From: an uncultured virus (IMG/VR IMGVR_UViG_3300034019_000699)
Taxonomy: Duplodnaviria; Heunggongvirae; Uroviricota; Caudoviricetes
Length of the DNA: 64,000 bases
Strand: one strand, 5' to 3'
Virus record (IMG/VR): IMGVR_UViG_3300034019_000699
Positions 35,588 through 55,100 of the stretch are shown piece by piece. A model generated the notes under the pieces. The model ran no database searches. It was given only the letters and a program-made list of their open reading frames with translations, and was not told the DNA's origin. The stretch's first letter is position 1; every line of letters begins with the position of its first letter. Made by a program: the position numbers and the translations under genes.

Positions 35588-35588
35588 A

Positions 35589-37984: not shown

Positions 37985-38001
37985 CCTTATCTATTAAAAG
38001 A

Positions 38002-38032: not shown

Positions 38033-38136
38033 GATCATTTTTTGTTTATTTATGTATCATACATCTAAACAAAATATTCCAATTTACTCTAATTAAGAAA
38101 TCTGAAAACAAATCTGAATTATGATATACTTAAACC

Positions 38137-38709: not shown

Positions 38710-38866
38710 CCTAGAAAATGCCTGTGGGGTTTATAGGGTTTTTCAGAATTGTGCTATAATAAGATCATGACAGAAGAAACCACATCTTTAAAACTTTGCT
38801 GTGATGCATGCACATGCACCAACTCTCACAGTTCTAAGCCACCAGTAGAAGAAGTAGAGTAATTCC

Positions 38867-39064
38867 ATGGGCATAGGGTTTTTAGATAACCTAGAAAATG
38901 CCTGGGATGAAAATCTATTTCTGGAATCAAAACCAATACCTGAAACAGACAACATGGGTAGAGAAAAGTTTTGGGAAGATCTAGGAAGACCAGAATATGA
39001 AAACCTGGCTGTAAAAATATTTTCAGAAACTTGTTGCAAAGATTGTAGTTGCAAAAATGGATAG
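38867..39064 (+). CDS. hypothetical protein
   Basis: 65 aa, CCKDCSC. Confidence 0.5.
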   Translation: MGIGFLDNLENAWDENLFLESKPIPETDNMGREKFWEDLGRPEYENLAVKIFSETCCKDCSCKNG

Positions 39065-39470
39065 CGATCAACAACAACTAACTATAGAGCAAGCACAAGC
39101 AATTTTATTATTTCAGATTGAGCAAAAACTCAGGGTACATATAGCAAAACAAGTTGAGAACAAATTCCACGGAATGTATCATGACGCATCACACGTAATA
39201 GCACAATACATACGTAACATGGTCTAAAAGTATTTAGATCCGTCTGACTCTTCTAAGTTTCCAGGGCAAGAAAATTAATCTTCAACTCTATCCAACTCCC
39301 ACATTCTAATATCTATAAACCCAATTCTAGATTTATCTGCTACTTCTTGGGAATCAGCCTCTATTGCAATACGAACACTTGTCTCTATATCAATTCCAGA
39401 GTTAAGTTTAGTGCCAGCATTCTTTTCATACATTTCCTCTATTACAGATAATATTGGTTTGTAATAATAC

Positions 39471-39662
39471 TTAGGCAATTGCTCCACCCTCTTTAAGTTT
39501 GTCATAAATGTTTGACATCATAAAACCAAGACTAGCCTGGCTCTGCTCAATTTGTTTTTCAAGATCTGCTGCATTTAATCCAGCCTGAAGACCCATTGCT
39601 CGGTTATCCTCATTAATGCTATTTAGCATAATATTTACTGCTTCGTCTTTTGTCATACCCAT
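39471..39662 (-). CDS. hypothetical protein
   Basis: Coupled to the upstream ORF; AAAAGGA SD. Confidence 0.55.
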   Translation of the reverse strand: MGMTKDEAVNIMLNSINEDNRAMGLQAGLNAADLEKQIEQSQASLGFMMSNIYDKLKEGGAIA

Positions 39663-40423
39663 TCCTTTTCTTGGTCGTAAGTTACAGAGTACTCCCCTGT
39701 AAATATTTCGGCGTACGAAATGATATCTCTATTATACCGTATAACGGTTTCTATGCCAACTTTGTCACATACATACTTAATACCCTTGACTAGTGGCTCA
39801 AACTTCATCCCCTGCCCTTCTAGGGCCTTATTTAAGGTATCCAGATATCTTTCCTTGCCATAACGTTTTGACACAAATGCTTGATCAACATATTCAAACC
39901 TTGCATCCCTATCATTATCTTTTGCAATGTCCGAATTGTCCATTATATACCTTAATGCAGGATGATCCATCCTATCAGACCAGTTTCGCATGTTAGGCTC
40001 ATATTTTTCCATATTGCGTAGTGTTGAATCAGCAAAGGCCATGCGTATTAGGTCTGTATTGGAGGTTTGAACCTCTGTTGCGAACGAAATCAAAAAAGCG
40101 GTTGCGAAAGGAAACTTGTCGCTATAAGTCGTTATGCCGAAATGTACATTCGGATTGAAAGACTCAGTTGACATACCGTCTTCTAATCGGCGCATATGAT
40201 TTCCGAGAGATACAAACTCTTGTCGATTCATATCGCAGTCGACGAACAAGCATTGCTCTGGATCTATCCCGTCGGCGAGACACAAAATGTTTTTGTCATA
40301 TGAACCCACTATTTTCGAACCGTTAAAACGCTCTATTAATTTTGCGGTCATAAAACCATCCATGTCGGGAGATATAATTAAATTTTGAGAATGCTCCAGT
40401 GTATCAAGTATGTCCGTTTTCAT
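39653..40423 (-). CDS. DHH-like phosphoesterase-fold protein
   Basis: ISPDMDG, LFVDCD and LGNH motifs; tentative. Confidence 0.55.
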   Translation of the reverse strand: MKTDILDTLEHSQNLIISPDMDGFMTAKLIERFNGSKIVGSYDKNILCLADGIDPEQCLFVDCDMNRQEFVSLGNHMRRLEDGMSTESFNPNVHFGITTYSDKFPFATAFLISFATEVQTSNTDLIRMAFADSTLRNMEKYEPNMRNWSDRMDHPALRYIMDNSDIAKDNDRDARFEYVDQAFVSKRYGKERYLDTLNKALEGQGMKFEPLVKGIKYVCDKVGIETVIRYNRDIISYAEIFTGEYSVTYDQEKEWV

Positions 40424-40457: not shown

Positions 40458-40724
40458 ATGACAGTACAAGACTGGGCTTCGCTAATCGTAGCCATCTTAA
40501 CAATTGTATCATCAATCGCTTTTGGAATCAAGTGGCTAGTAAAACACTATCTAATCGAACTTAAACCAAATTCTGGATCCAGTCTAAGAGATGCTGTCAC
40601 AAGGCTAGAAATGGCTTTGGACGAACAAAGAGTTGACTCAATTAAATCCAGAAATCGTCAAGAAGAAAAGTTGGACGAGATGTATAAAATTTTAATTGAT
40701 CATATCGCTAACACTAAAAAATAA
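40458..40724 (+). CDS. TM plus coiled-coil protein
   Basis: Leaderless; TM then LKPNSGSSLRDAVTRLE. Confidence 0.7.
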   Translation: MTVQDWASLIVAILTIVSSIAFGIKWLVKHYLIELKPNSGSSLRDAVTRLEMALDEQRVDSIKSRNRQEEKLDEMYKILIDHIANTKK

Positions 40725-40927
40725 TTTGCTATATACTATATATAATATATAAAGATAGTTTTTAAAACTATAAAGATATCTTTCTTTCTTATATATATTT
40801 AAGTATACACTATCGCAATCCTGGCATATAAGACAAACCTTGACAAATCGGACATTACCTATTATAACAATTTGATAAACTTTTTATATCATGTCCGTTT
40901 TGTCCTTTATGGTATAATTTTCTTGTT

Positions 40928-40974
40928 GGCTAATACCTTGGTTTGTCCTATACCCACCGACCTTGGTATTAGTC
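40928..40974 (+). ncRNA. candidate small stem-closed RNA
   Basis: TGGTATAAT upstream; GGCTAATACC/GGTATTAGTC stem. Confidence 0.4.
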
Positions 40975-40997
40975 AATTTTTATGGTATAATCACAGT

Positions 40998-41393
40998 ATG
41001 CCTATTCACTCTTCTCTTGCTTTTGGTGCCGATCCAGTCACTATGCAGTGGAGCGTTGTTAGAGGAGATACTGGGACTCTAAGAGTAGAGTTCTATGAGG
41101 ATAATGAAGTAGATTATTATGATACTACTGGGTGGATTTTTAGAGCAACTGCTTATGATCAATCTGGTAATGTTTTAGATGCCCTGGATTGTGAGCCTTC
41201 AGATGGTTTTGTAGATATTACAGCCCATCCTTCGGTTACAAAAAATTGGGGATCTAAATATTCATCAATCGTGGCTCAACTACCATTTGATTTACAGGTA
41301 ATAATTCCACAAAATATTGAAGACACTGTTTGGACTCCTGTTATTGGAACCATTCAAGTATTAGGCGATGTTACCCCAGGAGGTACACTATAA
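40998..41393 (+). CDS. virion/tail-associated protein, paralog of 51883-52266
   Basis: FGADPVTMQWSVVRGDT; leaderless start revised to 40998. Confidence 0.65.
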   Translation: MPIHSSLAFGADPVTMQWSVVRGDTGTLRVEFYEDNEVDYYDTTGWIFRATAYDQSGNVLDALDCEPSDGFVDITAHPSVTKNWGSKYSSIVAQLPFDLQVIIPQNIEDTVWTPVIGTIQVLGDVTPGGTL

Positions 41394-41998
41394 TGGCAGT
41401 TATTAAGATTGTTCCAATGCCAGGCGCAGTTGGAGACAAGGGAGACGAAGGAGCCGTAGGCCCTCAAGGTCCACAAGGACAAACAGGACAAACAGGACAA
41501 AACGGACAAGATGCACTATGGTCATATCAAGGTGCATACAACCCATCTGCTGCTTATGCAGTTGGAGATGTCGTAGTTTATCAAGGACAACTTTATTATA
41601 CAAAGTCAGTAACAACTGCTGGAACACTTCCAACAGATACTGCAAAGTTTGATTTAATTGCATCAAAGGGTGCAGATGGACAACCAGGAACTGATGGTGC
41701 CCCAGGTGCAGATGGTTCAACTCCATTTACTTTGGTAGGTGCATATGACAATGGTGCATCTTACAATTTAGGAATTGCTGTTTATTATAATGGCGGTACA
41801 TATGTAAGAACTGGTAATCCACTTAATCCTGGATACCCTCCAGAAGTAGGTGCTATCAATGCTTCATGGACACCTATTGCAGAAAAAGGCGCAGATGCTG
41901 AATTGCCAACGGGAGCAACAGGAACATTCCAAACCTCAGACAGTAAAATAGTTTCAGTAGTCAACGGAATCATTACATCTATAGAGCCACTGACTTAA
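41393..41998 (+). CDS. collagen-repeat fibre protein with carbohydrate-binding-like modules
   Basis: GXY runs; YNPSAAYAVGDVVVYQGQLY. Confidence 0.75.
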   Translation: MAVIKIVPMPGAVGDKGDEGAVGPQGPQGQTGQTGQNGQDALWSYQGAYNPSAAYAVGDVVVYQGQLYYTKSVTTAGTLPTDTAKFDLIASKGADGQPGTDGAPGADGSTPFTLVGAYDNGASYNLGIAVYYNGGTYVRTGNPLNPGYPPEVGAINASWTPIAEKGADAELPTGATGTFQTSDSKIVSVVNGIITSIEPLT

Positions 41999-42018
41999 TA
42001 TAGTGAGATAATAACTCC

Positions 42019-42756
42019 ATGGCTGTTTCTAAATCTATGGACTTTCCAGGTGCAAAAAAATCATCTTATGCTGCACAAGTAGTTAGCCAAACCTCTCAAG
42101 TTACAGAAACACAGTTATACCCAGATTCTGCATTAAACTTTGTTCCAGTCCCTGGACCACAAGGCCCACCTGGGCCAGCAGGAAGAGATGGAGAAAGAGG
42201 CGAACAAGGTTCCACGGGAAACATTGGACCCAAAGGCGAAAGAGGCCTGCCAGGCAAAGATGGAGAAAGTTCTTTATCGGCATCTGGACAGCAGGCAGGT
42301 TGGGCATCATATACAAACAACGCAACCAAGCCTATAAAATTAGGAATTACCCAAGGTGATGATGGATGGGTCACTATTTGGCTTGACACTAAAGATAAAA
42401 CCCAGAATGAAAAATATATGCCAAAAGGCTGTACCAGTCTTTGGAACAGCCATCAACGAATGCTAAACTTTCACGGTATAAAAGAAGGGTCCCAAGTATT
42501 CGTAACATACAACTTCGAACTAACCACCTATACACCTAATACTGAGGTTTGGCTAAGGACATATTTTGCAAGCAAGGATCAGGAGTTTGTCCAGTTTGTT
42601 GGATCTTTAAAATATCAGAATGTTTATAATCTTTCTGCTACCCAGCAATTTTTTATAGAAGATTCTGTCATGTGGGGCAATGGTGCTATACCACAGATTA
42701 GAACAGACTTTGATGCATCAGTAATACTCAATTCTATCTACGTCAGCGTGGTATAA
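42019..42756 (+). CDS. collagen-repeat protein
   Basis: GPQGPPGPAGRDGERGEQG... then a globular domain. Confidence 0.8.
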   Translation: MAVSKSMDFPGAKKSSYAAQVVSQTSQVTETQLYPDSALNFVPVPGPQGPPGPAGRDGERGEQGSTGNIGPKGERGLPGKDGESSLSASGQQAGWASYTNNATKPIKLGITQGDDGWVTIWLDTKDKTQNEKYMPKGCTSLWNSHQRMLNFHGIKEGSQVFVTYNFELTTYTPNTEVWLRTYFASKDQEFVQFVGSLKYQNVYNLSATQQFFIEDSVMWGNGAIPQIRTDFDASVILNSIYVSVV

Positions 42757-42763
42757 TAAAACC

Positions 42764-43216
42764 ATGGCATTTCCAGCGACCTATGACTTTAACTACTATA
42801 AGGGTGATACTTTTGAATTTCGTATCTACCCGAAAAAGAACGATGGAACGGTTTTTGATTTAAGTACTTTTTATATTCCAACAAACTATGCCAACACTCC
42901 AGATGATGTAACAGATACTGTTGCTCCATATGATAGTGCTCAGTTTACTATTGCAAATGTTCGTGGTTCAGCAGGAGTCCCAATTAAATGTTTTGCTAGG
43001 GTATCAGATGACAATACTTTTGTCCAGTGTGCAATTAGACCAGCAGAAGGAAATCAATTAGTTGCTGGAACAGAATATGTGTATGACGTTGAAGTTAAAA
43101 AGCCAGCAGGTTCTGCAGGTAGCGGACAATATGAAATTGTTCAAACCTTGTTAACTGGAACAATAACAATTACAGATCAGGTTACAGGCGCTACGTCTGC
43201 AACTTCAGGTGCTTAA
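42764..43216 (+). CDS. virion/tail-associated protein
   Basis: YYKGDTF...YVYDVEV...LLTGTITITDQVT. Confidence 0.65.
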   Translation: MAFPATYDFNYYKGDTFEFRIYPKKNDGTVFDLSTFYIPTNYANTPDDVTDTVAPYDSAQFTIANVRGSAGVPIKCFARVSDDNTFVQCAIRPAEGNQLVAGTEYVYDVEVKKPAGSAGSGQYEIVQTLLTGTITITDQVTGATSATSGA

Positions 43217-43797
43217 TGGCAGACATCCTATTATCTACCGACGACTTAACAATTTTTGGGGGACCAGAAAACATAAGCCTTGACCTAGACATAGGACCAC
43301 AGGGTGATCGTGGAAGTATAATCATTGGTGTTCTTGGAGATCCAAGAGATACAGGTGTTGCATCTACTATTGTTCAAGATACCCAGGCTCTTGACATTGC
43401 TATAGACTATAACCCTTATTCGACAACTTATAAGACAGTTTTTCAAAAAGTTTCTACTGGAGGAGCATTACAGTGGACCCCTCTACTTACTTTAAAAACA
43501 AATTATTATTCATCTGTTAAAGATGTAACGGCTGTAAATGGAATTCTTACAATACCGCCAATTAATTTGACAGACATTGCAGACGAGATAAACCTTACAT
43601 CTGCAAACTTTAGTATTCAATATTCTATTTCATCACCAACAGGAGGACCTGCTTCAACAAGCCTTGTAGTCAGTGATGTAATAGATAGTCCAATTAGAGC
43701 ACTACCACTTCAAATAAAGGGTGTAGAATATATTGATAACACTTGGCAGCCAATGGCTGGTCCAAAGCGTGTTCATTTATTTATTACGGTGGTATAA
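43216..43797 (+). CDS. virion/tail-associated protein
   Basis: Coupled gene; DIGPQGDRGS. Confidence 0.6.
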   Translation: MADILLSTDDLTIFGGPENISLDLDIGPQGDRGSIIIGVLGDPRDTGVASTIVQDTQALDIAIDYNPYSTTYKTVFQKVSTGGALQWTPLLTLKTNYYSSVKDVTAVNGILTIPPINLTDIADEINLTSANFSIQYSISSPTGGPASTSLVVSDVIDSPIRALPLQIKGVEYIDNTWQPMAGPKRVHLFITVV

Positions 43798-43816
43798 TGG
43801 CAAGAGGTGATTTATA

Positions 43817-45859
43817 GTGGCAGAAGAGAATATTGACAACACCGTTAGTGGTAGCGGACTCTTCAATACCAAAATCCCTGGACTTTCAGACGCAGCCGAT
43901 ATTCAGGCAGCCCTAAGACTTTATCACTATGGATCTTATACTTATGATGGCGCCAACACAGATACTGGGCTTCTTTTAAATCCATCAATTGCAAAACACC
44001 TTCAAAACCTTGTAGATGCAGATACAGCCACTAATACATCACTAACAAACCACATATCAAATACCGAAAATGTCCACGGTATTGAGGATACAGCAGATTT
44101 AGCAACACAATCATTTGTCAATACAGCAATTACTAATGCTATAAGTGGTGCTACTGGAGGATACCCAGCCCTAGCAGGAGACGGTATTGATTGGAATTCT
44201 GTTGATTTACGATTTGATCTTGAACCACAACTATTAAATAATAATACTGTAATAACTAAGTCATCTGGATTTACTTTAGATCCCGTCGATGTTAATAAAA
44301 CTATTTTGCTTTCTACATCATCTCCAATGAATTTAACTATCCCACTAAACTCTTCTGTTAATATTCCTGTTGGATATAAGTACACTTTAGTTGAAATAGG
44401 ATCTGGTAAAACAACTTTTGTTCCAGCATCAGGTGTAACAATTAACAGCAAAAACTCACAACTATTTATTGATACACAGTATGGTCAGGCAACATTGGTA
44501 AAGGTTGATACAAATAGTTGGGTTGCTTATGGAGATATTTATGAAGGTGCTTCAAGCCCAACACCTGTAGCACCTACACCAGTTGCTCCTACTCCTGTAG
44601 CCCCTACTCCTACGCCTACTCCTGTAGCGCCTACTCCTGTAGCACCTACACCAGTTGCTCCTACTCCTGTAGCACCTACACCAGTTGCTCCTACTCCTGT
44701 AGCACCTACACCAGTAGCGCCTACTCCAGTAGCGCCTACTCCAGTAGCGCCTACTCCAGTAGCGCCTACTCCAGTAGCGCCTACTCCAGTAGCACCTACT
44801 CCAGTTGCTCCTACTCCTGTAGCACCTACACCAGTAGCGCCTACTCCAGTAGCACCTAATAATTTTGCTTATGCAACATTCTGTACTGATTCAGGACCAG
44901 ACCAAGCAGGAGAAGGTCTCAACTTTACAGATTGTGGAAGTTTAGAAGCCTTTATTAATGGAAACTTTGTTGGTGTAAATAGTCTTGTATGTCAGATAGG
45001 TTCTTACCCAGCACTTCCTACAAATTGCGGGGAAACTTCAGGAATTTGGTATACATTCTGTGGTAACGTATCAGCAGGATATAATCCAGGAACTGTTATC
45101 GGACCAATATTTGATTCATCACAAACATGTTCTCAAGCACTAGCAGAACAAACATCATATGGAGAAATTGGGTCAGGCTGGAACTGTGCAACTGGAACTT
45201 CTGGATCTTCTTCTGTACCAGCAGCAAATTGTGGAGCCACTCCTACTCCTGTAGCGCCTACACCAGTTGCTCCAACACCAGTAGCACCTACTCCAGTAGC
45301 ACCAACACCAGTTGCTCCAACACCAGTTGCTCCAACACCAGTTGCACCTACTCCTGTAGCGCCTACTCCAGTAGCACCAAGTTGTGTTCCAGCCGATGCA
45401 TGGTCATACAACCAGTCTAAGTGTCAGTCATGCGGATATTACTTCAGCACAGAATTTGGAGAGTGCTCAACAACTCCTTGGAACACGCCAACACCAGTTG
45501 CTCCAACACCAGTTGCTCCAACACCAGTTGCTCCAACACCAGTTGCACCTACTCCTGTAGCGCCTACTCCTGTAGCACCTACTCCTGTAGCGCCTACTCC
45601 TGTAGCACCTACACCAGTTGCTCCAACACCAGTAGCACCTACTCCAGTAGCACCTACACCTGTAGCCCCTACGCCAGTAGCACCTACACCAGTTGCTCCA
45701 ACACCAGTAGCACCTACACCTGTAGCAGCAACAGGAGTTCAGTGCACAGCCTTTGACATAAGTATTGGTGCATGCACTGGTGGAGGTTGCGATAATAGTG
45801 GCTGTGCTTCAGGTGGATCATGTAGTAATCCACAAAATTTTGCGGGATCAGGATGCTAA
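43817..45859 (+). CDS. tail fibre-like protein with (PTPVA)n blocks and Cys-rich domains
   Basis: N-terminal half shares VHGI.DTA and LTIPLNSS..PVG modules with 55101-56651; three PTPVA blocks, about 45 units. Confidence 0.8.
   Translation: MAEENIDNTVSGSGLFNTKIPGLSDAADIQAALRLYHYGSYTYDGANTDTGLLLNPSIAKHLQNLVDADTATNTSLTNHISNTENVHGIEDTADLATQSFVNTAITNAISGATGGYPALAGDGIDWNSVDLRFDLEPQLLNNNTVITKSSGFTLDPVDVNKTILLSTSSPMNLTIPLNSSVNIPVGYKYTLVEIGSGKTTFVPASGVTINSKNSQLFIDTQYGQATLVKVDTNSWVAYGDIYEGASSPTPVAPTPVAPTPVAPTPTPTPVAPTPVAPTPVAPTPVAPTPVAPTPVAPTPVAPTPVAPTPVAPTPVAPTPVAPTPVAPTPVAPTPVAPTPVAPTPVAPNNFAYATFCTDSGPDQAGEGLNFTDCGSLEAFINGNFVGVNSLVCQIGSYPALPTNCGETSGIWYTFCGNVSAGYNPGTVIGPIFDSSQTCSQALAEQTSYGEIGSGWNCATGTSGSSSVPAANCGATPTPVAPTPVAPTPVAPTPVAPTPVAPTPVAPTPVAPTPVAPTPVAPSCVPADAWSYNQSKCQSCGYYFSTEFGECSTTPWNTPTPVAPTPVAPTPVAPTPVAPTPVAPTPVAPTPVAPTPVAPTPVAPTPVAPTPVAPTPVAPTPVAPTPVAPTPVAPTPVAATGVQCTAFDISIGACTGGGCDNSGCASGGSCSNPQNFAGSGC
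44558..45727 (+). repeat. 15-bp coding tandem repeats (PTPVA)
   Basis: CCTACwCCwGTwGCn units at about 44558-44857, 45238-45380 and 45488-45727. Confidence 0.9.
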
Positions 45860-45877
45860 TAAAATGAAGGAGACAAT

Positions 45878-46288
45878 ATGTTAACAGACTCAAGTATTCT
45901 ATATTCTAGTTACGAAAATGGACCAGGAGGAGTTCCTTTAGTCTGGGTTATAGATGGTCAGTGTGTATATGATATTCCCACCTCAAATGAGCATGCAGAA
46001 ATGTTTGTGTTGAGTGATGAAGTTTTGGATATTTCTGAAGATTATCCAGACCATGAAGGCATTACCGTTAGATTTGTTAAAGATGGAGAAACGGTTAATG
46101 AACTTCAAACATCTGAGTATTTTGGAAGCATACTTCTTAGCAACCCACAGGTCTTAAGTCTTTTTGACTACCCTTATGGAAGATACGTAGTATCTCCAAA
46201 TGCTACATTTGATGGAGAAAAATTTATTATTTTGGGCAGAGATACTTCGTTGCTTATGCCGTGGCATCCAAGTCAAAATAAAGACTAA
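45878..46288 (+). CDS. hypothetical protein directly after the PTPVA fibre
   Basis: AAGGAG SD. Confidence 0.7.
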   Translation: MLTDSSILYSSYENGPGGVPLVWVIDGQCVYDIPTSNEHAEMFVLSDEVLDISEDYPDHEGITVRFVKDGETVNELQTSEYFGSILLSNPQVLSLFDYPYGRYVVSPNATFDGEKFIILGRDTSLLMPWHPSQNKD

Positions 46289-46334
46289 TAACTTTTAGTG
46301 TATAATAGTTTTATAACGACTAAAGGGGACAATA

Positions 46335-46565
46335 ATGTCAAAATCAAAATGGCAAGAATATAAAGAAAAAAATGGAGTTACTCCATTAGACATACTTAAT
46401 CCAAACACAAAACATGCCTCTGAAGATTTGGCAACCACAAGACTATCTATTTGTAAAGTATGTCCAGAATTAATTAAATTAACCACACAATGCAAAAAGT
46501 GTGGCTGCTTTATGGCTGCAAAAACAAAATTAGAAGCGGCAAAGTGTCCAATTGGAAAATGGTAA
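46335..46565 (+). CDS. small Cys-rich protein (DUF6171-like)
   Basis: RLSICKVCP...QCKKCGCFM..KT....A.CP.GKW. Confidence 0.7.
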   Translation: MSKSKWQEYKEKNGVTPLDILNPNTKHASEDLATTRLSICKVCPELIKLTTQCKKCGCFMAAKTKLEAAKCPIGKW

Positions 46566-46566
46566 A

Positions 46567-47169
46567 ATGGAAAAAAACGAATTATGCCCTGGAATTTTTG
46601 TTTATAGTAATGTTATAGAAAATTTTATTTTTGATTCTTTGATTGAAGATATTGAAGAAGGGATGAAATATCTCAATATACAGTGGCAACAGTCTCAGGT
46701 AGAACACAAAGAAGGCGTAACAGTTGACACTAATTCAAGAGATACACAAATTATTGGTGTAGAATATCGAGATCATATTGTTGAAAATTTTTCAACACCA
46801 CACGAAGCGTTTTACTTAAATCTTTCAAATATATTTTTTAAAGCGTTTAATCCAAGAGAACATGATTACAAGTCTATGTTTGGCTGCCAGACTACTTGGC
46901 ACGATCAGTACGGAATTTTAAAATACGGTGTTGGTCAAAAATTTACTAATCATATAGATGATCACATAAATCATCATAGAAGAATTTCTACAACGTTTTA
47001 TTTAAATGAAAATTATGAAGGTGGAGAAATTATTTTCCCTAGGTTTAATGTAAAATATAAACCGAAAAAAAATGAATTATTAGTTTTTCCTTCTACGTTT
47101 GTTTATAATCATTCAGTATCTCCAGTTCTTGAAGGAGAAAGATACGCAGTTGTTAGTTGGATGCGATGA
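46567..47169 (+). CDS. 2OG-Fe(II) oxygenase (prolyl-4-hydroxylase-like)
   Basis: LKYGVGQKFTNHID...YLNENYEGGEI...HSVSPV..GERY. Confidence 0.88.
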   Translation: MEKNELCPGIFVYSNVIENFIFDSLIEDIEEGMKYLNIQWQQSQVEHKEGVTVDTNSRDTQIIGVEYRDHIVENFSTPHEAFYLNLSNIFFKAFNPREHDYKSMFGCQTTWHDQYGILKYGVGQKFTNHIDDHINHHRRISTTFYLNENYEGGEIIFPRFNVKYKPKKNELLVFPSTFVYNHSVSPVLEGERYAVVSWMR

Positions 47170-47738
47170 AAGAGCCACAACTAGTTGATAAGATTTTAAG
47201 CAAAGAAGATTATGACAGGCTAAAGGATGCTTTGGTAAATCCTAAGAGTTTTGGGTTTGATCCTGGCTTTAGTAGATATTGTATTGGGGATGGTGGACTT
47301 CCGATTCTAAAAGAATTAGCAGACAAACTGGTTCCTATTGCAAGAGAAGCCTTTGATAGCGAAAGATTATTACCTACATATACATTATTTGCTCATTATG
47401 AGGGGCAAAATCCAGAACCAAGTTTGTACAAACACAAAGACGACAACGCATGCACCTACACTCTTGATATGTGTGTTTATCAGGTAGAGCCATGGGATAT
47501 TTACGTTGATGACAAGGCCTATACTCTTTATCCAAATCAAGCCTTGGCATACTATGGAAACGATCAGTTCCATTGGAGAGAAAAGTTTCCAAATCCCGAA
47601 ACAAATCATGTTGCAATGATTTTCTTTCATTTTGCAGAACCAGATCACTGGTGGTTTGTCAAGGGTCCAGAATATTTGCAGGTAGTAAGAAAACAAATTA
47701 CAGAAGAACAATGGAGACTCCAGTATGAAAACAAATAA
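47166..47738 (+). CDS. 2OG-Fe(II) oxygenase-like protein
   Basis: LYKHKD..AC...HWRE...IFFHF. Confidence 0.7.
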   Translation: MKEPQLVDKILSKEDYDRLKDALVNPKSFGFDPGFSRYCIGDGGLPILKELADKLVPIAREAFDSERLLPTYTLFAHYEGQNPEPSLYKHKDDNACTYTLDMCVYQVEPWDIYVDDKAYTLYPNQALAYYGNDQFHWREKFPNPETNHVAMIFFHFAEPDHWWFVKGPEYLQVVRKQITEEQWRLQYENK

Positions 47739-48762
47739 GATATTTTTTCAACACTGGAATCCTTGCGGGTTAATAAATCAAGTAATGAGTCTAGAGTTAG
47801 CAATAGGTATTTCACATGAAACAAATGCAACTGTTGTAGTTCATAATGCAAGCAACAAGGGTGATCATTTATTTGATTTTAGGACTGTTCCAATTCACAC
47901 TCCTTCAAGATTTCATAACATTCAAAGAAAAGGATTTACAAATCCAGACCAGTTTCCACATCTATTAGATTTATTAGACTTTGATTCAAATTTAATTGTA
48001 ATTGATCAAAAAATAGACAACTTTAAGCAAGAAGAATTAATAGTAGACGATATGTTAAATAACTACTACTACAGTAATAGCCCAGAAATAACAGAAGATG
48101 AACTGGCATTCGCTGAAGGTAGACAAAGATTGCCACTAGATAGACCAATACATCTAAAAGGAACATTAGGATGGTACTCAAGATTCTTCTATAACAGAAG
48201 CCCTGAACTAGACAAGGCATTATCTTTAGTTAGGTTTAAGAAAGAGTACACAGACTTGGCCAAAAAGATATCTAATTCTTTAGGCAGATTTCAAGGTATG
48301 CATTTAAGACTAACTGACCATGTGCACATGTTTGAAACTACTCAAGAAATGTTTGAGTCTTGGATTAATAACTTTGAGAAAAATAACTTGCCAATAGTTT
48401 TGTCAACAGATGAACCAGGGCATAAAATGGTTGAAGATAATAAGCATAGATTTATGCTATTAGATGAATACATTGTTAATAACTTTGCAGAAGACTTCAA
48501 ATCCTTACAATTTCAGGATGAAGTAGTTTTTGGTTTAATCTGTAATCTAGTTATGCATGATTCAGAAACTTTTGTTGGTACATCAGGAAGCACCTATACT
48601 GCATATATCCATAGAAATAGAAATCAAACTGGTATTGAAACTTGGAATTTCTTTGATAATCCAGAAACAACAGAAGGTCACCCATATTCTTGGAATGGTT
48701 ATCCACTAAACCCTGGCAGAAAAATGTGGTGGAGAGAATGGAAGGAGTCTAGATTAACATGA
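47725..48762 (+). CDS. O-fucosyltransferase-like glycosyltransferase (GT-B)
   Basis: GLINQ, GMHLRLTD, LSTD and FVGTSGSTYT motifs. Confidence 0.72.
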   Translation: MKTNKIFFQHWNPCGLINQVMSLELAIGISHETNATVVVHNASNKGDHLFDFRTVPIHTPSRFHNIQRKGFTNPDQFPHLLDLLDFDSNLIVIDQKIDNFKQEELIVDDMLNNYYYSNSPEITEDELAFAEGRQRLPLDRPIHLKGTLGWYSRFFYNRSPELDKALSLVRFKKEYTDLAKKISNSLGRFQGMHLRLTDHVHMFETTQEMFESWINNFEKNNLPIVLSTDEPGHKMVEDNKHRFMLLDEYIVNNFAEDFKSLQFQDEVVFGLICNLVMHDSETFVGTSGSTYTAYIHRNRNQTGIETWNFFDNPETTEGHPYSWNGYPLNPGRKMWWREWKESRLT

Positions 48763-49781
48763 AAACAGCATTAGTGCTTGGAGCAGGGGGCTTCATTGGA
48801 AGTCATATGGTAAAGCGTTTAAAGTCTGAAGGATATTGGGTTAGAGGTGTTGACTTAAAGAATCCAGATTTTTCAGATACTTATGCTGACGAGTTTATAG
48901 AAAGAGATCTATCTCTATATGATAATATGGAAAAAGTGATTCAGTTTAAAGGATATTCTGGTAACTTTTATAATGAAATTCCTTATAAGTTAATAGCATC
49001 CTTTGATGAAATATATCAGTTTGCAGCAGATATGGGCGGAGCAGGATATATTTTTACTGGAAATAATGATTCTCAAATTATGGAAAACTCTGCACTTATA
49101 AACCTTAATCTTTTAAGAGCACAATCAAGATTTAATGAAAAATATGCAATTAATAAAACCAAGATATTTTATTCAAGTTCTGCCTGCATGTATCCTGACT
49201 ACAAACAGTTAGATGTTAATAATCCTGGACTTAAAGAGTCTGATGCATACCCTGCAGATCCTGACAGCGAGTATGGCTGGGAGAAACTATTTAGTGAGAG
49301 AATGTTCTTAGCATTTAATAGAAACAACAAGATCCCTGTAGCCATTGCCAGATATCATAATATTTATGGACCAGAAGGAACTTGGGATGGTGGAAAAGAA
49401 AAAGCACCAGCAGCAATATGTAGAAAAGTTATTCAGTCAGATGGATTTATAGAAATTTGGGGGGATGGAGAACAAACCCGTTCATTCCTATATATAGATG
49501 AATGCATAGAGGCAACAAGAAGACTGATGGAATCAGATTTTACTGGGCCTGTTAATATTGGTTCTGAGGAAATGGTTACCATTAATCAACTTGTAGATAT
49601 TGCTTGTAGTATTGAAGGAAAAACTTTAAGCAAGATGCATATCCCAGGTCCTTTGGGTGTTAGAGGAAGAAACTCCAATAATGACTTAGTTAGAGATAAG
49701 TTAGATTGGGACTATTCCATGTCTCTTAAAGATGGAATAGAAAAAACTTATAACTGGATCAAGGATCAAATAAATGGATAA
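48759..49781 (+). CDS. NAD-dependent epimerase, GDP-mannose 3,5-epimerase-like
   Basis: GAGGFIG; FAADMGGAGYI; YSSSACMYP; YGWEK; EKAPAAICRK; GVRGRNS. Confidence 0.88.
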   Translation: MKTALVLGAGGFIGSHMVKRLKSEGYWVRGVDLKNPDFSDTYADEFIERDLSLYDNMEKVIQFKGYSGNFYNEIPYKLIASFDEIYQFAADMGGAGYIFTGNNDSQIMENSALINLNLLRAQSRFNEKYAINKTKIFYSSSACMYPDYKQLDVNNPGLKESDAYPADPDSEYGWEKLFSERMFLAFNRNNKIPVAIARYHNIYGPEGTWDGGKEKAPAAICRKVIQSDGFIEIWGDGEQTRSFLYIDECIEATRRLMESDFTGPVNIGSEEMVTINQLVDIACSIEGKTLSKMHIPGPLGVRGRNSNNDLVRDKLDWDYSMSLKDGIEKTYNWIKDQING

Positions 49782-50601
49782 GCAAGAAGTTGTAAAAGAA
49801 GTTTTTCTTCAAGATGGTATTGGAGCACAATTATGGAGAAAACTATACTTAATGTCCTATGCAAAATATTATAATTTGTTATTTGAAGATACACCAATTA
49901 CAGATTTCTTAATTCATGAGTCTGACAAAGTACACAGTGAAGAAGAAAAAATTGAATTTATAAATAAATTTAATACTATAATAAAAAATCCATGGGAAGG
50001 TATAGATTTTTCTAATCAAGACAATTTTGTTCTTTCCGAAAAGGTTGGACTGGGATACGAAAAACTACATCTAAATGCAGGAGTAGCCCCAGGACCCTGG
50101 CCATTTTTAGAAGTTGCCAAAGAATTTAGCACAATAGAACAAACTGAAAACAATGTAGTTATTCACATACGAAGAGGCAATGTGATTCCAGAAAATCCAA
50201 GGTGGGTAGATGAGTCTGTCTATATAGAAATGCTAAAACAATTACCAAACTTTCTAAAGAAAATAAACTTTGTTCCAGACAGAGTAATAATTTTAACAGA
50301 TGCTCCAGATTCAAACAAAAAGTTTAAGCCTATAAATCAAAATCAATTAGATAAGTGGAGACAGCCTTATTTGCACAAAGACGAAAACAATTCTTTTGAC
50401 ACAATTTCCTTAAACTTTGAATTACTTAAAGATGCTTATCTAGGTATTGAAATTTTAAATAGTTTAGATACTTACACAGCATTTACTATGATGGTGATGG
50501 CAAAAGTCTTAATAACTGGAAGATCTGCATTTAGTCAATCTGCTGGTCTGCTATCAAAAAATACTGTTTTGTCAGTTGACAACTATAGAAGTTTCTTTTA
50601 A
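49774..50601 (+). CDS. GT11-like (alpha-1,2-fucosyltransferase-like) glycosyltransferase
   Basis: DGIGAQL; IHIRRGN; ILTD; SAFS..A. Confidence 0.65.
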   Translation: MDKQEVVKEVFLQDGIGAQLWRKLYLMSYAKYYNLLFEDTPITDFLIHESDKVHSEEEKIEFINKFNTIIKNPWEGIDFSNQDNFVLSEKVGLGYEKLHLNAGVAPGPWPFLEVAKEFSTIEQTENNVVIHIRRGNVIPENPRWVDESVYIEMLKQLPNFLKKINFVPDRVIILTDAPDSNKKFKPINQNQLDKWRQPYLHKDENNSFDTISLNFELLKDAYLGIEILNSLDTYTAFTMMVMAKVLITGRSAFSQSAGLLSKNTVLSVDNYRSFF

Positions 50602-50657
50602 AGTGTGCAATAAAACACCCCCAGGGATTTCTCCAAGGGGGCATTTTTTTTTATATA

Positions 50658-51221
50658 TTACTTAGGAAATTTAGCCATCCACTCTTTGGTCCTTGGGGTA
50701 ATACCCTTCCATGAAGACCAGTCTTCTCCGCCCCTAGACATGTAGTATGCAATCTCAGCATTTTTGACGGGATTGAACAATTCAGCATTAGAGTCCAAAT
50801 CAAACTTATCCCTGCGGTCTGGGCCCAGTCTATCAATCATATTAATTTGGAACATTCCATAAGAGGAGTCCCCAGTCTTATGGTTGCCATTAAACGCCAA
50901 AGGCCTACCATTAGATTCTTTCTTGGCAATGGCCCAAGCCACTACAAGATCTTGCCCCTTAAACCCTATAAGGGAAAGGAGTTGCTTTAGTTCAATGTCG
51001 GTCAGAGATGTCTTATTCTCAAAACTCTCTAGCCTTTTTGCCTTAGAAACCAAAAAAACCTCTTTCGAGGCGTTTCCTTGCTCTTGAGCCTGTTCTATGC
51101 TCAAACTATTTTTGTCACCTATTCGTGTTTCAGCATTAGCAGCGTTTGACAAAGTCGCTACTAAAGTCAGTATGCTGAGTATGCTAATGATCTCTTTGTT
51201 TCTTTCGATAAATTTAATCAT
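50658..51221 (-). CDS. secreted lysozyme-like/lytic transglycosylase
   Basis: Signal/TM; AIAKKESNG...SYGMFQIN...NAEIA...WSSW; AAGGAGG SD before ATG 51221. Confidence 0.85.
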   Translation of the reverse strand: MIKFIERNKEIISILSILTLVATLSNAANAETRIGDKNSLSIEQAQEQGNASKEVFLVSKAKRLESFENKTSLTDIELKQLLSLIGFKGQDLVVAWAIAKKESNGRPLAFNGNHKTGDSSYGMFQINMIDRLGPDRRDKFDLDSNAELFNPVKNAEIAYYMSRGGEDWSSWKGITPRTKEWMAKFPK

Positions 51222-51324
51222 AGTTTCCTCCTTAGAAAACAATAACACCTTGGTAGGTGTTACTACCAAGTATAACATGAAATTTATTGAAAAGTCAAGT
51301 TTATAGGGTGGTATAATAAAGATT

Positions 51325-51870
51325 ATGCCACAAGCGTCATCTAACTATCCTACTATGCAATATCCTATTGCTTCAGATCCCGTGAATGTACACGGAGATT
51401 TTAAAGTATTAGTTGATGCTTTAAATAATATTCTTCCTCCCCTGGGATACGGCGCAGCATATCTTGATGTTAGAAATACTACAGGCACAGCAATTTCTCA
51501 GGGCATTCCAGTATTTATTAGTGGTAGTCTTTCTGGAAAATCATTAATTCAAAAATATGATCCATCAAGTGTATCTCATAATCCAGATGTTCCAATTTTA
51601 GGTTTAGTAAAAAATGATATTCCAAATAATTCTAATGGTTTGGTTATTGTCTCTGGAGTTATTCAAATGAATACAACAGGTTTGGGTTCTGCTGGAACAA
51701 AAATTTATGTAGACAATACTGGAACCCTTGTTGCGGGTCGTCCATCAACTGGTCCAGCAAGATATATAGCAGTTGTTGCTATTCAGGCAACGCTTGCTGA
51801 AGGTGGAATGCTAATTGTTCAAACAAAGGGTAACGGTACATGGGGAGCCCTTAAAGACGGGTTGTCGTGA
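51325..51870 (+). CDS. virion structural protein
   Basis: Leaderless; VRNTTG.AI..G.PVFISG module. Confidence 0.6.
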   Translation: MPQASSNYPTMQYPIASDPVNVHGDFKVLVDALNNILPPLGYGAAYLDVRNTTGTAISQGIPVFISGSLSGKSLIQKYDPSSVSHNPDVPILGLVKNDIPNNSNGLVIVSGVIQMNTTGLGSAGTKIYVDNTGTLVAGRPSTGPARYIAVVAIQATLAEGGMLIVQTKGNGTWGALKDGLS

Positions 51871-51882
51871 TATAATAACATT

Positions 51883-52266
51883 ATGGCTACCTTTAGAAAC
51901 CAACCCACAGACTCTTATGCATTAGGTGCAGCACCTCCAGAAATTCGTTGGACTGTTGTTCGTGGAGATTCTGCAGCATTTCGTGTTTATGTAACTAACG
52001 ATGCAAGAGAGCCACTGCTTCTTGATGACTGGGAAGTTGATATGGACATTCGTCGTAATGGAGCACTTATTGTTTCTTTATCTCCTCAGCCAATTGAGTT
52101 TCAAGATACAGAGGGGAGTTTCACGGTAAACATTACATCTTCTCAATCAGAACTTCTTGAGACGGGAGACATCTTTGACATCCAACTTACAGAACTTTTA
52201 TCAGAGGGCAGAGTTTGGACGGTAGCCAAAGGGTCAATGGTTATCATTGAAGATGTAACAAATTAA
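51883..52266 (+). CDS. virion/tail-associated protein
   Basis: WTVVRGDS...FDIQL...WTVAKG. Confidence 0.65.
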   Translation: MATFRNQPTDSYALGAAPPEIRWTVVRGDSAAFRVYVTNDAREPLLLDDWEVDMDIRRNGALIVSLSPQPIEFQDTEGSFTVNITSSQSELLETGDIFDIQLTELLSEGRVWTVAKGSMVIIEDVTN

Positions 52267-52544: not shown

Positions 52545-52991
52545 ATGGCGAAAATATCAATTTCAAACGTAAAGTCTCTCTTTGAAACAGGAGATAGGCC
52601 TACTCAAGAAAATTATGAAGATTTAATTGATACCGCAACTGCCCAAGCAACAGATTTGGGTTCTTATGGTAACAATGAAAATACAATCACTGGTATTGAG
52701 AACGTAACTGTAATTGATAACTTTGATGCTACAGTTTGGCGTATGGTTAAGTATATTATTTCAATATCCAAGACCACAGCAGGGGACAACAAGTTCTATG
52801 CAACCGAACTAACAATTCTCGTTGACGGTGCAAATGTATCAGTCAGCGAATACGGAACAATAGACAATGATGGGAATATTGGCACCATAAGCGTCTCTCG
52901 CACTGGAAATACCGTGGCTATTACAGTCACTCCAGATCCTGCGATCAAGCCAGTCACTGCACGGTTCGCCCGTATAGGACTTAAGGCATAA
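52545..52991 (+). CDS. tail-associated protein
   Basis: FETGDRPTQENYEDLID; C-terminal module related to the end of 53008-54561. Confidence 0.65.
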   Translation: MAKISISNVKSLFETGDRPTQENYEDLIDTATAQATDLGSYGNNENTITGIENVTVIDNFDATVWRMVKYIISISKTTAGDNKFYATELTILVDGANVSVSEYGTIDNDGNIGTISVSRTGNTVAITVTPDPAIKPVTARFARIGLKA

Positions 52992-53007: not shown

Positions 53008-54561
53008 ATGGCAACAGTAGTAAAAGACTTTAAAGTAAAGAATGGTCTCATTGTCGAAGGCACAACAGCAACAGTAAACAATTTTGACGTTCTTACTAAG
53101 AAAACAGACGATCAAACATACATCGTCAATTTAATTGGTGGTACAGCCACCTCAGCAAACGAAGCAAACAAGGTTGTAAAGCGTGATGCTTCAGGCAACT
53201 TTGCAGCAGGAACAATTACAGCAAACCTAACTGGTGCTGTAACTGGTAACGCTTCAACAGCAACAACTCTTGAAACTTCTCGTACAATTGAACTTACTGG
53301 AGATGTAACTGGTCAAGTTAACTTCAATGGTTCACAAAATGTTCAAATTTCAACAACTCTTAATGGCTCTTTTGCAACAGATGCAGAAGTTGCTACAGCA
53401 AAGGGCGAAGCAATTGATGCTGCAGCAGCATACACAGACACTCGTGAAGGTCTAATCACAACTGCTTATCAGTCATACGCTGACACAGCAGAAGCAGATG
53501 CTAAGGCATACACAGACACTCGTGAAGGTCTAATCACAACTGCTTATCAGTCATACGCTGACACAGCAGAAGCAGATGCAGTAACAACTGCAAACGCTTA
53601 CACAGATGCTGAAATTGCAGCACTTGTAGATTCAGCACCAGAACTTCTTGATACACTCAATGAACTGGCAGCAGCAATTGGAGACAATCCAAACTATGCA
53701 ACAGATCTTGCTACATCAGTAGGAACAAAGGTTTCAAAGGCTGGCGATACAATGACTGGACTTCTTGTCCTTTCAGCAGATCCATCAGCAAACCTTGGAG
53801 CAGCAACTAAGCAGTATGTAGATACAGCAGAATCAGACGCAAATGCATACACAGACACTCGTGAAGGTCTAATCACAACTGCTTATCAGTCATACGCTGA
53901 CACAGCAGAAGCAGATGCTAAGACATATGCAGATGGTCTTGCTTCAACAATTAACGGAACTATTGCAGCACTTGATACAGACGATGTAGCAGAAGGTTCA
54001 AACTTTTACTACACTGCTGCTCGTGCAAAGGCAGAGGCAGCAACGCTTCTTGCAAATGCAATAAAGACAAACATTACAATTACCAAGGATGGATCAGATA
54101 ATCTAACAATTACCGCAGAAAACGGTGTTGCAGATTCTTCAACTACAGACCTTGCAGAAGGAACAAACCTTTATTTTACAAATGCTCGTGCAGTAACCGC
54201 TCTTGAGGCAGTCACACCTGACTTCCCTGCAGTAGAGATTGCAAGCATTGCAAAGCAGGTAGCAGCAGAAGCATCTGTTGAAACTGCAAGCACAAACACA
54301 GCAGTGTCATGGGCCAAGGCTTCATATCGCTCTGCTGAATTCTTGGTTAAGATTGCTAATGGATCTCACACAGATGTTTCAAAGGTTATCCTAACACTTG
54401 ACACTTCAGACAATGTCGCTATCACAGAATACGCAATGGTTGGAACAAATGGTTCTCTTGGATCAGTTTCAGCAGATGTTTCTGGTAACGATGTTCGTCT
54501 TCGTGTTACAACAGCCAACAACACCTCAGTAGTAGGCGTTGTCGGAACACTTTTAAAGTAA
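53008..54561 (+). CDS. tail fibre protein with internal repeats
   Basis: KDFKVKNGL; LDTLNELAAAIGD; three copies of AYTDTREGLITTAYQSYADTAEADA. Confidence 0.8.
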   Translation: MATVVKDFKVKNGLIVEGTTATVNNFDVLTKKTDDQTYIVNLIGGTATSANEANKVVKRDASGNFAAGTITANLTGAVTGNASTATTLETSRTIELTGDVTGQVNFNGSQNVQISTTLNGSFATDAEVATAKGEAIDAAAAYTDTREGLITTAYQSYADTAEADAKAYTDTREGLITTAYQSYADTAEADAVTTANAYTDAEIAALVDSAPELLDTLNELAAAIGDNPNYATDLATSVGTKVSKAGDTMTGLLVLSADPSANLGAATKQYVDTAESDANAYTDTREGLITTAYQSYADTAEADAKTYADGLASTINGTIAALDTDDVAEGSNFYYTAARAKAEAATLLANAIKTNITITKDGSDNLTITAENGVADSSTTDLAEGTNLYFTNARAVTALEAVTPDFPAVEIASIAKQVAAEASVETASTNTAVSWAKASYRSAEFLVKIANGSHTDVSKVILTLDTSDNVAITEYAMVGTNGSLGSVSADVSGNDVRLRVTTANNTSVVGVVGTLLK

Positions 54562-54595
54562 TAAAAAAATAAATAGTTGGAAGAAGGAGTAGTAA

Positions 54596-55045
54596 ATGGC
54601 AACAGTCAATAAGGACTTTAAAGTCAAGAATGGACTCCAGGTCGCAGGATCTGGTAGTTTTGGAGGGACTTTAACAGTCGCAGAGCCAACAGAGGCTACA
54701 CATGTAGCAACTAAGGCATATGTTGACAATCGCTCAATGGCTGTTGGCAGCACTGCTCCTTCTTCACCAACTAATGGAACAATGTGGTTAGACACTCTAA
54801 CAAATAGAGTGAACTTTTATTACAATGGAGTTTGGTATACCCAAGCAACTATTGATGATACAAACAATCTTCCACAACATATTCACGATACTGCAATTGA
54901 TGGAACTGGTTTCATAGTATCTCAGTTTTATGAAGGCGGATCGTTTAATAGCCCATTGGGCATAGGTTTGGATGCAGGTGGCCCCTCTACAACAGAGTGG
55001 ACAGTTGTATTCGATGGCGGTAGTGTAGTAGATAACTTTAATTAA
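54596..55045 (+). CDS. tail fibre-associated protein
   Basis: KDFKVKNGL; ATKAYVD; APSSPTNGTMWLDT. Confidence 0.7.
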   Translation: MATVNKDFKVKNGLQVAGSGSFGGTLTVAEPTEATHVATKAYVDNRSMAVGSTAPSSPTNGTMWLDTLTNRVNFYYNGVWYTQATIDDTNNLPQHIHDTAIDGTGFIVSQFYEGGSFNSPLGIGLDAGGPSTTEWTVVFDGGSVVDNFN

Positions 55046-55100
55046 AAAATTGATGTTATAATAAGACTAGTTCATGGGCAGACCCCATAAGGAGATATAA

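Follow-up and report, generated by a model that had tools for sequence, protein, structure and literature searches.

In the extensins and arabinogalactan proteins of plants and algae, X-Pro repeats are hydroxylated and then O-glycosylated, which results in rigid rods. In the Skp1 pathway of Dictyostelium and Toxoplasma the prolyl 4-hydroxylase (P4H) PhyA is followed by Gnt1, PgtA and AgtA, and hydroxylated Skp1 is the substrate of Gnt1 (PMC3515798). Among viruses, the P4H of the chlorovirus PBCV-1 (vCPH, 5c5t) was described to hydroxylate (Pro-Ala-Pro-Lys)n, with the prolines before Ala reacting best (PMC3634087). For no other viral P4H are peptide substrates known. Genes for P4H-type 2-oxoglutarate (2OG) oxygenases are among the most frequent "auxiliary" genes in aquatic phages, and a review of viral auxiliary metabolic genes terms the use of viral P4H cryptic (PMC9301287). 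Here we analyse a stretch of 64,000 nt (the window) from the uncultured Caudoviricetes virus IMGVR_UViG_3300034019_000699, in which the gene of a fibre-tip protein with (PTPVA)n linkers is followed by candidate hydroxylation and glycosylation genes. We propose that the phage hydroxylates and sugar-coats its own fibre and that the genes of this operon suffice by themselves to tailor the product of the first one, a reading to which we assign a probability of roughly 0.5.

The co-oriented run of eight genes at 43817-50601, delineated previously in a first-pass annotation based on the letters and their open reading frames (ORFs), was fully recovered:

43817-45859, plus strand: fibre-tip gene, 680 aa, with an 18-nt gap to p136
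45878-46288, plus strand: p136, 136 aa, with a 46-nt gap to the DUF6171 gene
46335-46565, plus strand: DUF6171 gene, 76 aa, Cys-rich
46552-47169, plus strand: OG1, P4H-type 2OG/Fe(II) oxygenase, PF13640
47157-47738, plus strand: OG2, divergent 2OG oxygenase, identified by its fold
47725-48762, plus strand: GT1, glycosyltransferase of a divergent branch of the PF10250 superfamily
48759-49781, plus strand: homologue of GDP-mannose 3,5-epimerase (GME)
49774-50601, plus strand: GT2, GT-B glycosyltransferase of fucosyltransferase fold, in which an H-I-R-R-G motif is invariant

From the DUF6171 gene through GT2, consecutive genes overlap by 4-14 nt and are translationally coupled. The next gene (50658-51278), which encodes an SLT lysozyme domain, is convergent to the operon, and therefore the run ends at 50601.

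The proposed phage logic is similar to that of the Skp1 pathway, whose P4H, a soluble enzyme of the cytoplasm, creates the acceptor on which soluble glycosyltransferases act, with fucose added by one of them. However, in Skp1 one proline of a folded regulatory protein is modified, while the phage candidate is a structural protein with about 44 repeat units. The window also differs from the Skp1 system in its transferases: a Pfam scan revealed no PF11397 (GT60) protein in the operon, the family to which Gnt1 presumably belongs, and two fucosyltransferase-fold enzymes and an own GDP-L-sugar epimerase are found instead. With PBCV-1 the locus shares the idea of a virus-encoded P4H acting on short X-Pro repeats, but PBCV-1 is a eukaryotic algal virus, its P4H gene is not in an operon with the substrate, and OG1 and OG2 are distant from vCPH (10-15% identity in structural alignments). 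We know of no link between the PBCV-1 enzyme and glycosylation of hydroxyproline. The plant pathway operates in the endoplasmic reticulum (ER) and Golgi with UDP-sugars (arabinose, galactose), whereas the phage enzymes lack an ER/Golgi setting and would draw on a GDP-L-sugar. Likewise, plant GME serves ascorbate or cell-wall synthesis, while the product of the phage homologue would serve protein glycosylation.

POFUT1 and POFUT2 act on folded Cys-knot domains, where they modify Ser/Thr in the ER. GT1 and GT2 share 10-17% identity with POFUT1/POFUT2 (GT65/GT68), FUT8 and NodZ, and neither reaches a curated Pfam cut-off. For mycobacteriophages, we know of no hydroxylase or sugar-nucleotide epimerase of the type described here; phage glycosyltransferases encoded beside structural genes are said (Freeman et al., Cell Host Microbe, in 2023) to decorate virion proteins, reportedly capsid and tail-tube proteins. 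Virion glycosylation in mycobacteriophages is also mentioned as a cited result in PMC12582341. A literature search whose coverage extended to few subscription journals yielded no published report of fibre repeats as substrates of a phage P4H, nor of hydroxyproline glycosylation in phages.

The fibre-tip protein contains 44 PTPVA units (the repeat as such had been recognized before, with an estimate of about 45), which are arranged in three blocks of 19, 9 and 16:

44558-44857, plus strand: linker 1, 19 PTPVA units, aa 248-347
45236-45379, plus strand: linker 2, 9 PTPVA units, aa 474-521
45485-45727, plus strand: linker 3, 16 PTPVA units, aa 557-637

The Tandem Repeats Finder (TRF) scores of linkers 1, 2 and 3 are 374, 141-197 and 257, respectively. 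The units are encoded by 15 different synonymous 15-nt DNA versions, and therefore the repeat is maintained at the protein level. A fibre domain (aa 1-247) is followed by a linker, one or more beads, a linker, a bead, the last linker and a last bead; the three Cys-rich segments between and after the linkers contain 8, 4 and 6 Cys. Residues 135-241 match the minor tail protein phrog_8780 (E 1.3e-12), phrog_21978 (E 4.9e-14) and the virion structural protein phrog_18179 (E 1.2e-10), and the 680-aa protein is probably a fibre tip located on the virion.

A connection between the linkers of this protein and the enzymes encoded behind it is indicated by relatives. A search seeded with OG2 yielded 473 relatives, and the 80 best were retained; a search seeded with GT1 yielded 45 loci. 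When the two sets are pooled, OG2 is present in 112 loci, with 67 distinct sequences. A Pro-rich stretch was defined as at least 9 Pro per 30 aa, encoded on the same strand. Such a stretch precedes OG2 within 4.5 kb in 50 of the 51 distinct loci having at least 2 kb of upstream DNA, and in the exception, L055, a protein with VTPPP repeats is encoded next to another cassette, a paralogue of the first. The upstream zone (226 kb) contains 170 Pro-rich stretches, as compared with 6 in 502 kb elsewhere. The repeat units behind which the cassette is found vary (PTPVA, PAPVA, PVAPS, PAPAP, IIATP, PTPVP, TPTPT, PQPTP, VTPPP), and so do their carriers, which can be fibre fusions, stand-alone proteins of 107-193 aa, an fn3 protein or an 842-aa protein. 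Every carrier examined is terminated by a Cys-rich knot. The cassette accompanies the Pro-repeat module also into other contexts and carriers (L037, L042, L044, L055, L072-L077).

The core conserved across the relatives is the trio DUF6171-OG1-OG2, with the DUF6171 gene in first position; of all cassette genes, OG2 has the widest distribution. The glycosyl genes are an optional addition to this more widely distributed core: GT1 is present in 35 of the 67 distinct OG2 loci, and 11 distinct loci with downstream flank harbour the oxygenases and none of the queried glycosyl genes. Other OG2 loci hold JmjC, X318 (see below) or carbamoyltransferase genes, and in L103 a GT60 gene, a methyltransferase gene and two genes for short-chain dehydrogenase/reductase (SDR) enzymes are located behind the oxygenases. 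Conversely, OG2 adjoins GT1 in all 39 GT1-seeded loci with enough upstream DNA (21 of 21 distinct ones), the remaining 6 being truncated.

A further sample was obtained via an unrelated conserved flanking gene (52545-52991), and therefore not through the cassette itself. It comprises 30 loci covering the whole interval, 26 of them distinct, and a Pro-rich linker together with OG1/OG2 was found in 22 of the 26. Altogether, Pro-rich linkers and P4H-type oxygenases are both present in 23 and both absent in 3 of the distinct loci; the chance of such a perfect split is 1 in 2600 by a calculation made by hand, which ignores shared ancestry. Thus, the absence of co-occurrence in relatives, named in the first-pass annotation as an outcome that would speak against its proposal, is not what we observe: co-occurrence is strong in both samples (50 of 51, and 23 and 3 of 26). 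The three loci that lack both components are the following:

L134: Pro-poor xYTFTP linker; GME and a GT1-like gene after the cement gene; no 2OG oxygenase in the interval
L151: Pro-poor poly-Thr/Ala linker; radical SAM/SPASM, GT60 and SDR genes; no 2OG oxygenase in the interval
L160: Pro-poor xYxFTP linker; no enzymes in the slot and no 2OG oxygenase in the interval

The 23rd locus in which both are present, L176, combines a VTPP linker with a different PF13640 oxygenase, accompanied by a cupin, two GT61 enzymes and a radical SAM/SPASM enzyme. The beads are homologous throughout the flank-seeded loci. Since the beads of the window are 43-65% identical to those of L151 and L176, while the enzyme sets differ, the enzymes follow the linkers and neither the beads nor the fibre domain or carrier.

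Both oxygenases postulated in the first-pass annotation were recovered, OG1 by its family and OG2 by its fold. OG1 matches PF13640 with 65.3 bits (cut-off 27; E 1e-17). Prolyl hydroxylases from bacteria and animals are its nearest relatives of solved structure, with the Bacillus anthracis prolyl 4-hydroxylase 3itq in first place (E 2.4e-7). The putative iron ligands H134-x-D136 and H187 and the basic residue R197 are invariant in 12 orthologues; R197 was assigned by a spacing rule, which we take to place the basic 2OG-binding residue about 10 residues past the distal His. Based on its co-occurrence with the linkers and on its B. anthracis relative, OG1 is predicted to be a peptidyl-proline hydroxylase. 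OG2 has the double-stranded beta-helix fold, an invariant H93-x-D95, and H139, H158 and H164 as candidates for the distal His, and no Pfam match. At the profile level no relation between OG2 and OG1 was detectable (hhalign probability 0.2), and the search of the OG2 profile against PDB sequences gave nothing usable. The PBCV-1 enzyme 5c5t is at rank 6 among the Foldseek matches of OG2, but the structural matches to prolyl hydroxylases do not exceed those to other 2OG oxygenases. In 50,697 deposited phage records, tblastn detected OG2 in four, corresponding to two cyanophages, with 26-28% identity. A prediction of a complex between OG1, OG2 and fibre residues 236-300 scored 0.02 with the mark at 0.32 and counts neither way. 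PADLOC assigned to OG1 only a generic "2OG" model and gave no sign of a defence system.

The DUF6171 protein matches PF19668 (E 1.6e-6) and phrog_13558 (E 1.6e-17), and its residues C40, C43, C53, C56, C58 and C71 are at least 95% conserved across 61 distinct copies. In contrast to this core gene, p136 was found by tblastn across the loci in some relatives only, always directly after the repeat protein; it has no match in Pfam, PHROG or NCBIfam.

The assignment of the epimerase is solid at the sequence level. As suggested before, it is a true GME homologue, which matches Arabidopsis GME (2c59) over its full length (residues 6-339) with E 6.5e-92, while the next-best family reaches only E 1.4e-23. 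The segments S-S-A-C, Y-G-x-E-K and G-G-x-E-K-A-P-A-A are conserved between the two proteins; they hold what we take to be the catalytic residues, namely the SDR Ser/Tyr/Lys and the Cys/Lys acid-base pair. The phage protein has an insertion of 18 residues after the NAD-binding part when compared to 2c59. NCBIfam contains no GME model, and its best match, GDP-L-fucose synthase, is far under the cut-off.

For GT1, the label "O-fucosyltransferase-like" holds in the sense of a distant relationship, but not at the level of the curated PF10250 cut-off (21.3 vs. 31.5 bits). PF10250 is matched by 6 of 13 GT1 orthologues, all under the cut-off, and by 33 of 45 remote GT1 relatives (profile E<=1e-16), five of them above it. 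The GT1 profile aligns with POFUT2 (4ap5) with E 0.037, including the H-L-R and G-T-S-x-S-T motifs. Judged from these intermediates and the donor-binding motifs in the sequence, GT1 is a distant O-FucT relative. GT2 was previously labelled "GT11-like". Its GT-B fold is nearest to GDP-fucose-using enzymes, and together with the H-x-R-R-G motif this places it in the fucosyltransferase superfamily; the GT11 motif is H-x-R-R-G-D. GT11 as such could not be retained, since GT2 has no match to PF01531 or any other Pfam family and its profile no PDB sequence match. Its Atlas neighbours carry PF01531 in only 14-20% of the members, and a precomputed annotation as NodZ (PF05830) was found for 1 of 120 GT2 homologues. 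The best solved relatives of GT2 and GT1 are POFUT1 and POFUT2, respectively, and no relation between the two phage proteins was detectable at the profile level (hhalign probability 0.16). Neither GT1 nor GT2 has a tblastn match in the 50,697 deposited phage records.

Natural gene fusions connect the OG2 family with the GT1 family, and both with the glycosylation of proteins, possibly on hydroxyproline. In the family P0396 (15 members on 8 contigs), an OG2 part (residues 6-174, 46% identical) is fused to a GT60/PF11397 part (residues 242-446). This fusion, and the position of GT60 behind the oxygenases in L103, are Skp1-like features of the phage relatives. OG2 is also fused to PF13640 (P0394, P0397) and to JmjC (P0395). 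Among the 45 remote GT1 relatives, five have a GT1-like part fused to a PF13640 oxygenase, two (P0252 and P0260) to the hydroxyproline arabinosyltransferase (HPAT) family PF23452, which is a likeness to the plant pathway, two to the peptide-binding PqqD and one to PF11397.

Taken together, we envisage the following course of events, with all steps taking place in the cytoplasm of the infected cell. OG1 and OG2, perhaps with the DUF6171 protein as a partner, would hydroxylate prolines of the linkers. The GME homologue would convert GDP-D-mannose of the host to GDP-L-galactose or GDP-L-gulose, for which the homology is strong. GT1 and GT2 would then attach the L-sugar to the linker and extend it; their relatives use the closely related GDP-L-fucose, and the acceptor could be hydroxyproline or possibly the Thr of PTPVA. 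The product would be a stiff, hydrophilic, protease-resistant glycosylated stalk bearing the distal beads. The individual steps differ in probability. An action of the cassette on the repeat protein next to it appears likely to us, and hydroxylation of proline is somewhat favoured, while the odds that in this phage the sugar sits on hydroxyproline are a little below even. The glycosylated stalk was already proposed in the first-pass annotation. The tracking of oxygenases with linkers, the fusions and the GME assignment speak for it; the formation of hydroxyproline, a glycan linked to it, L-galactose as the sugar, and the location and glycosylation of the protein on the virion are predictions made from the gene content.

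Several points weigh against this proposal. The support consists of gene context and homology throughout, and the placement of the fibre protein on the virion is backed by homology alone. The related loci mostly share their gene order by descent, so that the counts given above are not independent events. The match of GT1 to PF10250 stays below the curated cut-off. The window harbours nine further PF13640 paralogues besides OG1, and therefore the adjacency of OG1 in this window alone means little. The GME homologue of the cyanophage S-SM2 is located in a sugar island, far from fibre genes. Finally, L134 combines a GT1-like gene and GME with an adjacent Thr-bearing linker, and L151 a GT60 gene with a poly-Thr linker, both without an oxygenase, and therefore such transferases may use Thr.

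The last point leads to the possibility that the L-sugar is attached to the Thr of PTPVA, as in mucin-type O-glycosylation, and that the hydroxylation of proline or another residue is a separate process, which e.g. stiffens the linker. In line with this, 44 Thr residues are available in the units, protist GT60 enzymes start mucin-type O-GlcNAc on Ser/Thr (PMC8724618), and the 11 distinct oxygenase loci without queried glycosyl genes indicate that hydroxylation has a sugar-free role. However, L075, L076 and L082 have the full glycosyl set (GT1, X318, GT2, carbamoyltransferase and GME) behind linkers with only 3-6% Ser+Thr, and the linker of about 120 aa in L075 contains one Thr and no Ser at all. 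Moreover, the fusions of GT1 relatives to P4H-type oxygenases and to the HPAT family, the fusion of OG2 to GT60 and the invariable neighbourhood of GT1 and OG2 speak against two separate processes, and we consider Thr as the acceptor less likely than not, but a serious competitor of the main reading. A clear trend between the presence of glycosyl genes and the Ser/Thr content of Pro-rich linkers was sought and not seen, GT1 being found at 3% to 48% Ser+Thr. One could also argue that the beads, and not the linkers, are the substrate, and that they undergo POFUT-like O-glycosylation and 2OG-dependent hydroxylation similarly to animal EGF and thrombospondin repeats, because POFUT1 and POFUT2 are the best solved relatives of the transferases and a Cys-rich knot ends every carrier examined. 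But homologous beads in the window, L151 and L176 go along with three enzyme sets that change with the linker, L134, L151 and L160 have beads and no oxygenases behind their Pro-poor linkers, and disulfide knots are not expected in the reducing cytoplasm, where enzymes without signal sequences would act. Modification of the beads is thus quite improbable.

Alternatively, the fibre may remain untouched, and the genes behind it may constitute a hypervariable island of auxiliary genes for host envelope glycans or a small molecule. Such a scenario finds some backing in the GME homologues of marine cyanophages, which sit in sugar-biosynthesis islands away from fibres, and in the slot between the fibre and SLT genes, where gene sets of many different kinds are clearly exchanged. 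It does not account well for the cassette following the Pro-repeat module to other contexts and carriers, for the presence of oxygenases according to linker composition (23 and 3 of 26), for the fusions to peptide-binding PqqD, HPAT and GT60, or for the radical SAM/SPASM genes in the slot of relatives, which are presumably typical peptide maturases; we regard it as improbable. Least of all do we favour OG1 and OG2 being oxygenases for nucleic-acid repair or modification or for small molecules. Many phage 2OG oxygenases are enzymes of these kinds, PF13640 is a broad family, the PHROG labels of the oxygenase relatives include "DNA endonuclease", and the OG2 fold resembles AlkB homologues, SnoN and amino-acid halogenases/hydroxylases no less than prolyl hydroxylases. 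Given the tight link to Pro-rich linkers, the OG2-GT60 fusion and the prolyl hydroxylases as best solved relatives of OG1, this explanation is very improbable.

Returning to the tailoring of the fibre by its own operon, we note that the slot following the fibre-tip gene is one in which protein-tailoring enzymes are exchanged. It is tempting to speculate, though with more doubt than confidence, that the window belongs to an abundant uncultured phage lineage of about 105-120 kb with a plug-and-play tailoring slot, which is filled here with genes for extensin-like rods, built in the bacterial cytoplasm from (PTPVA)n whose 4-hydroxyproline would bear oligosaccharides of L-galactose or L-gulose. 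Similarly tentative are the details of this view, namely that POFUT-like enzymes use a GDP-L-sugar made by the phage, that the DUF6171 protein is a subunit for substrate recognition or assembly, and that linker chemistry and enzyme set change together. Radical SAM/SPASM enzymes are encoded first behind the fibre gene in L151 (5326-6330) and L176 (3456-4310), where they are accompanied by GT60 or GT61 and the linkers are poly-Thr or VTPP. In many relatives a conserved protein of 310-318 aa, X318, is encoded between GT1 and GT2 or the carbamoyltransferase gene, and is possibly a third transferase. It is absent from the window, and no Pfam family is matched by the three copies that were scanned, those of L024, L039 and L044. 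Copies are located as follows:

L024, 9118-10050: X318
L027, 9112-10068: X318
L039, 8346-9302: X318
L044, 5456-6412: X318

The fibre tips of L134 (3981-6032) and L160 (7069-8100), which have (x-Y-T/S-F-T-P)n linkers, contain PASTA domains (E 9e-7 and 1.9e-12). PASTA is peptidoglycan-binding by its Pfam name, a hint to what the distal fibre part binds.

The proposed system is of interest for several reasons. The operon and its relatives offer the P4H-type genes of phages a concrete, testable substrate that is encoded next door. If our proposal is correct, phages make hydroxyproline, and perhaps hydroxyproline-linked L-sugars, in the bacterial cytoplasm, a modification regarded as characteristic of plants, algae, protists and a single algal virus. 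With such sugars attached, the fibre would be the first hydroxyproline glycoprotein in a bacterial virus, and the "prolyl 4-hydroxylase" genes of aquatic phages, for long without an explanation, would find one. Further, it would bear on protease resistance, reach and host recognition of the fibre, and it would provide a compact set of soluble enzymes for the production of hydroxylated and glycosylated repeat proteins in bacteria.

The surroundings of the operon contain these genes:

41330-41998 and 42019-42756, plus strand: two collagen-repeat (G-X-Y) fibre proteins upstream of the operon, one with a CBM_5_12 match
51325-51870: cement protein gene
53008-56651: further fibre genes

Flanked by these genes, the operon is part of a structural gene module and shows the arrangement associated with virion glycosylation, i.e. 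phage-encoded glycosyltransferases within such a module. The collagen-repeat proteins are conceivable further substrates for P4H-type enzymes. A consensus scan of 40500-52000 for promoters and terminators gave results at the shuffle level (38 vs. 39.4 and 6 vs. 7.9) and carries no information on the structure of the operon.

A second module of the same logic, in which a repeat protein is followed by oxygenases without a glycosyltransferase, is located at 56684-63739 on the plus strand:

56684-57556, plus strand: 290-aa repeat protein, in which about 20 (P)PFF units accompany two fn3-like domains and the C-terminus forms a Cys knot
57592-58038, plus strand: 148-aa protein directly after the repeat protein
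58091, 59581, 61453, 62088 and 62990, plus strand: five PF13640 oxygenases
58804, 60264 and 60971, plus strand: interleaved genes for, respectively, a phrog_7084 protein, a DUF6065 protein also matching phrog_7084, and a 151-aa protein

In its N-terminal half, the 290-aa protein shares 50% identity with the L044 carrier, whose repeats are PQPTP; the cassette of L044 includes glycosyltransferases. The 148-aa protein and p136 are unrelated. A third Pro-rich repeat protein of the window is encoded by the 5'-open ORF at 1-1302 (plus strand), which contains about 110 residues of an acidic (P-E-P-T/S)n repeat (Pfam PT repeat, E 1.2e-8). Together with the paralogues outside both modules, ten PF13640 genes and OG2 are found within the 64 kb.

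Regarding the type of phage, a T4-like cyanomyovirus was considered and dropped: three relatives are complete genomes of 105-120 kb with terminal repeats, a fourth one is a 92% complete linear record of 101 kb, and psbA was absent from all five records searched, with a positive control. Megablast with 20000-40000 of the window gave no match. The record G001 carries an identical 8.5 kb, and the DUF932 protein matches mostly actinophages, with about 51% identity. The remaining features are listed below. A homologue of the carbamoyltransferase is present inside the glycosyl cassette in L042, L044, L072-L077 and L082, and therefore the glycan may be carbamoylated.

4724-5299, plus strand; 16211-16894, 16933-17646 and 22897-23481, minus strand: PF13640 paralogues outside both modules
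12369-13793, minus strand: NodU/CmcH-type carbamoyltransferase (PF16861, E 6.5e-53; PF02543, E 3.2e-34)
10016-10435, plus strand: Hsp20, candidate auxiliary gene
14866-15291 and 15359-16168, minus strand: two glutathione-peroxidase-like proteins, candidate auxiliary genes
10650-10970, plus strand: small ORF with a cytochrome c552-like match (E 6.6e-7), candidate auxiliary gene
17670-17821 and 28900-28976, minus strand: three tRNA genes, Glu (ttc), Met (cat) and Asp (gtc)

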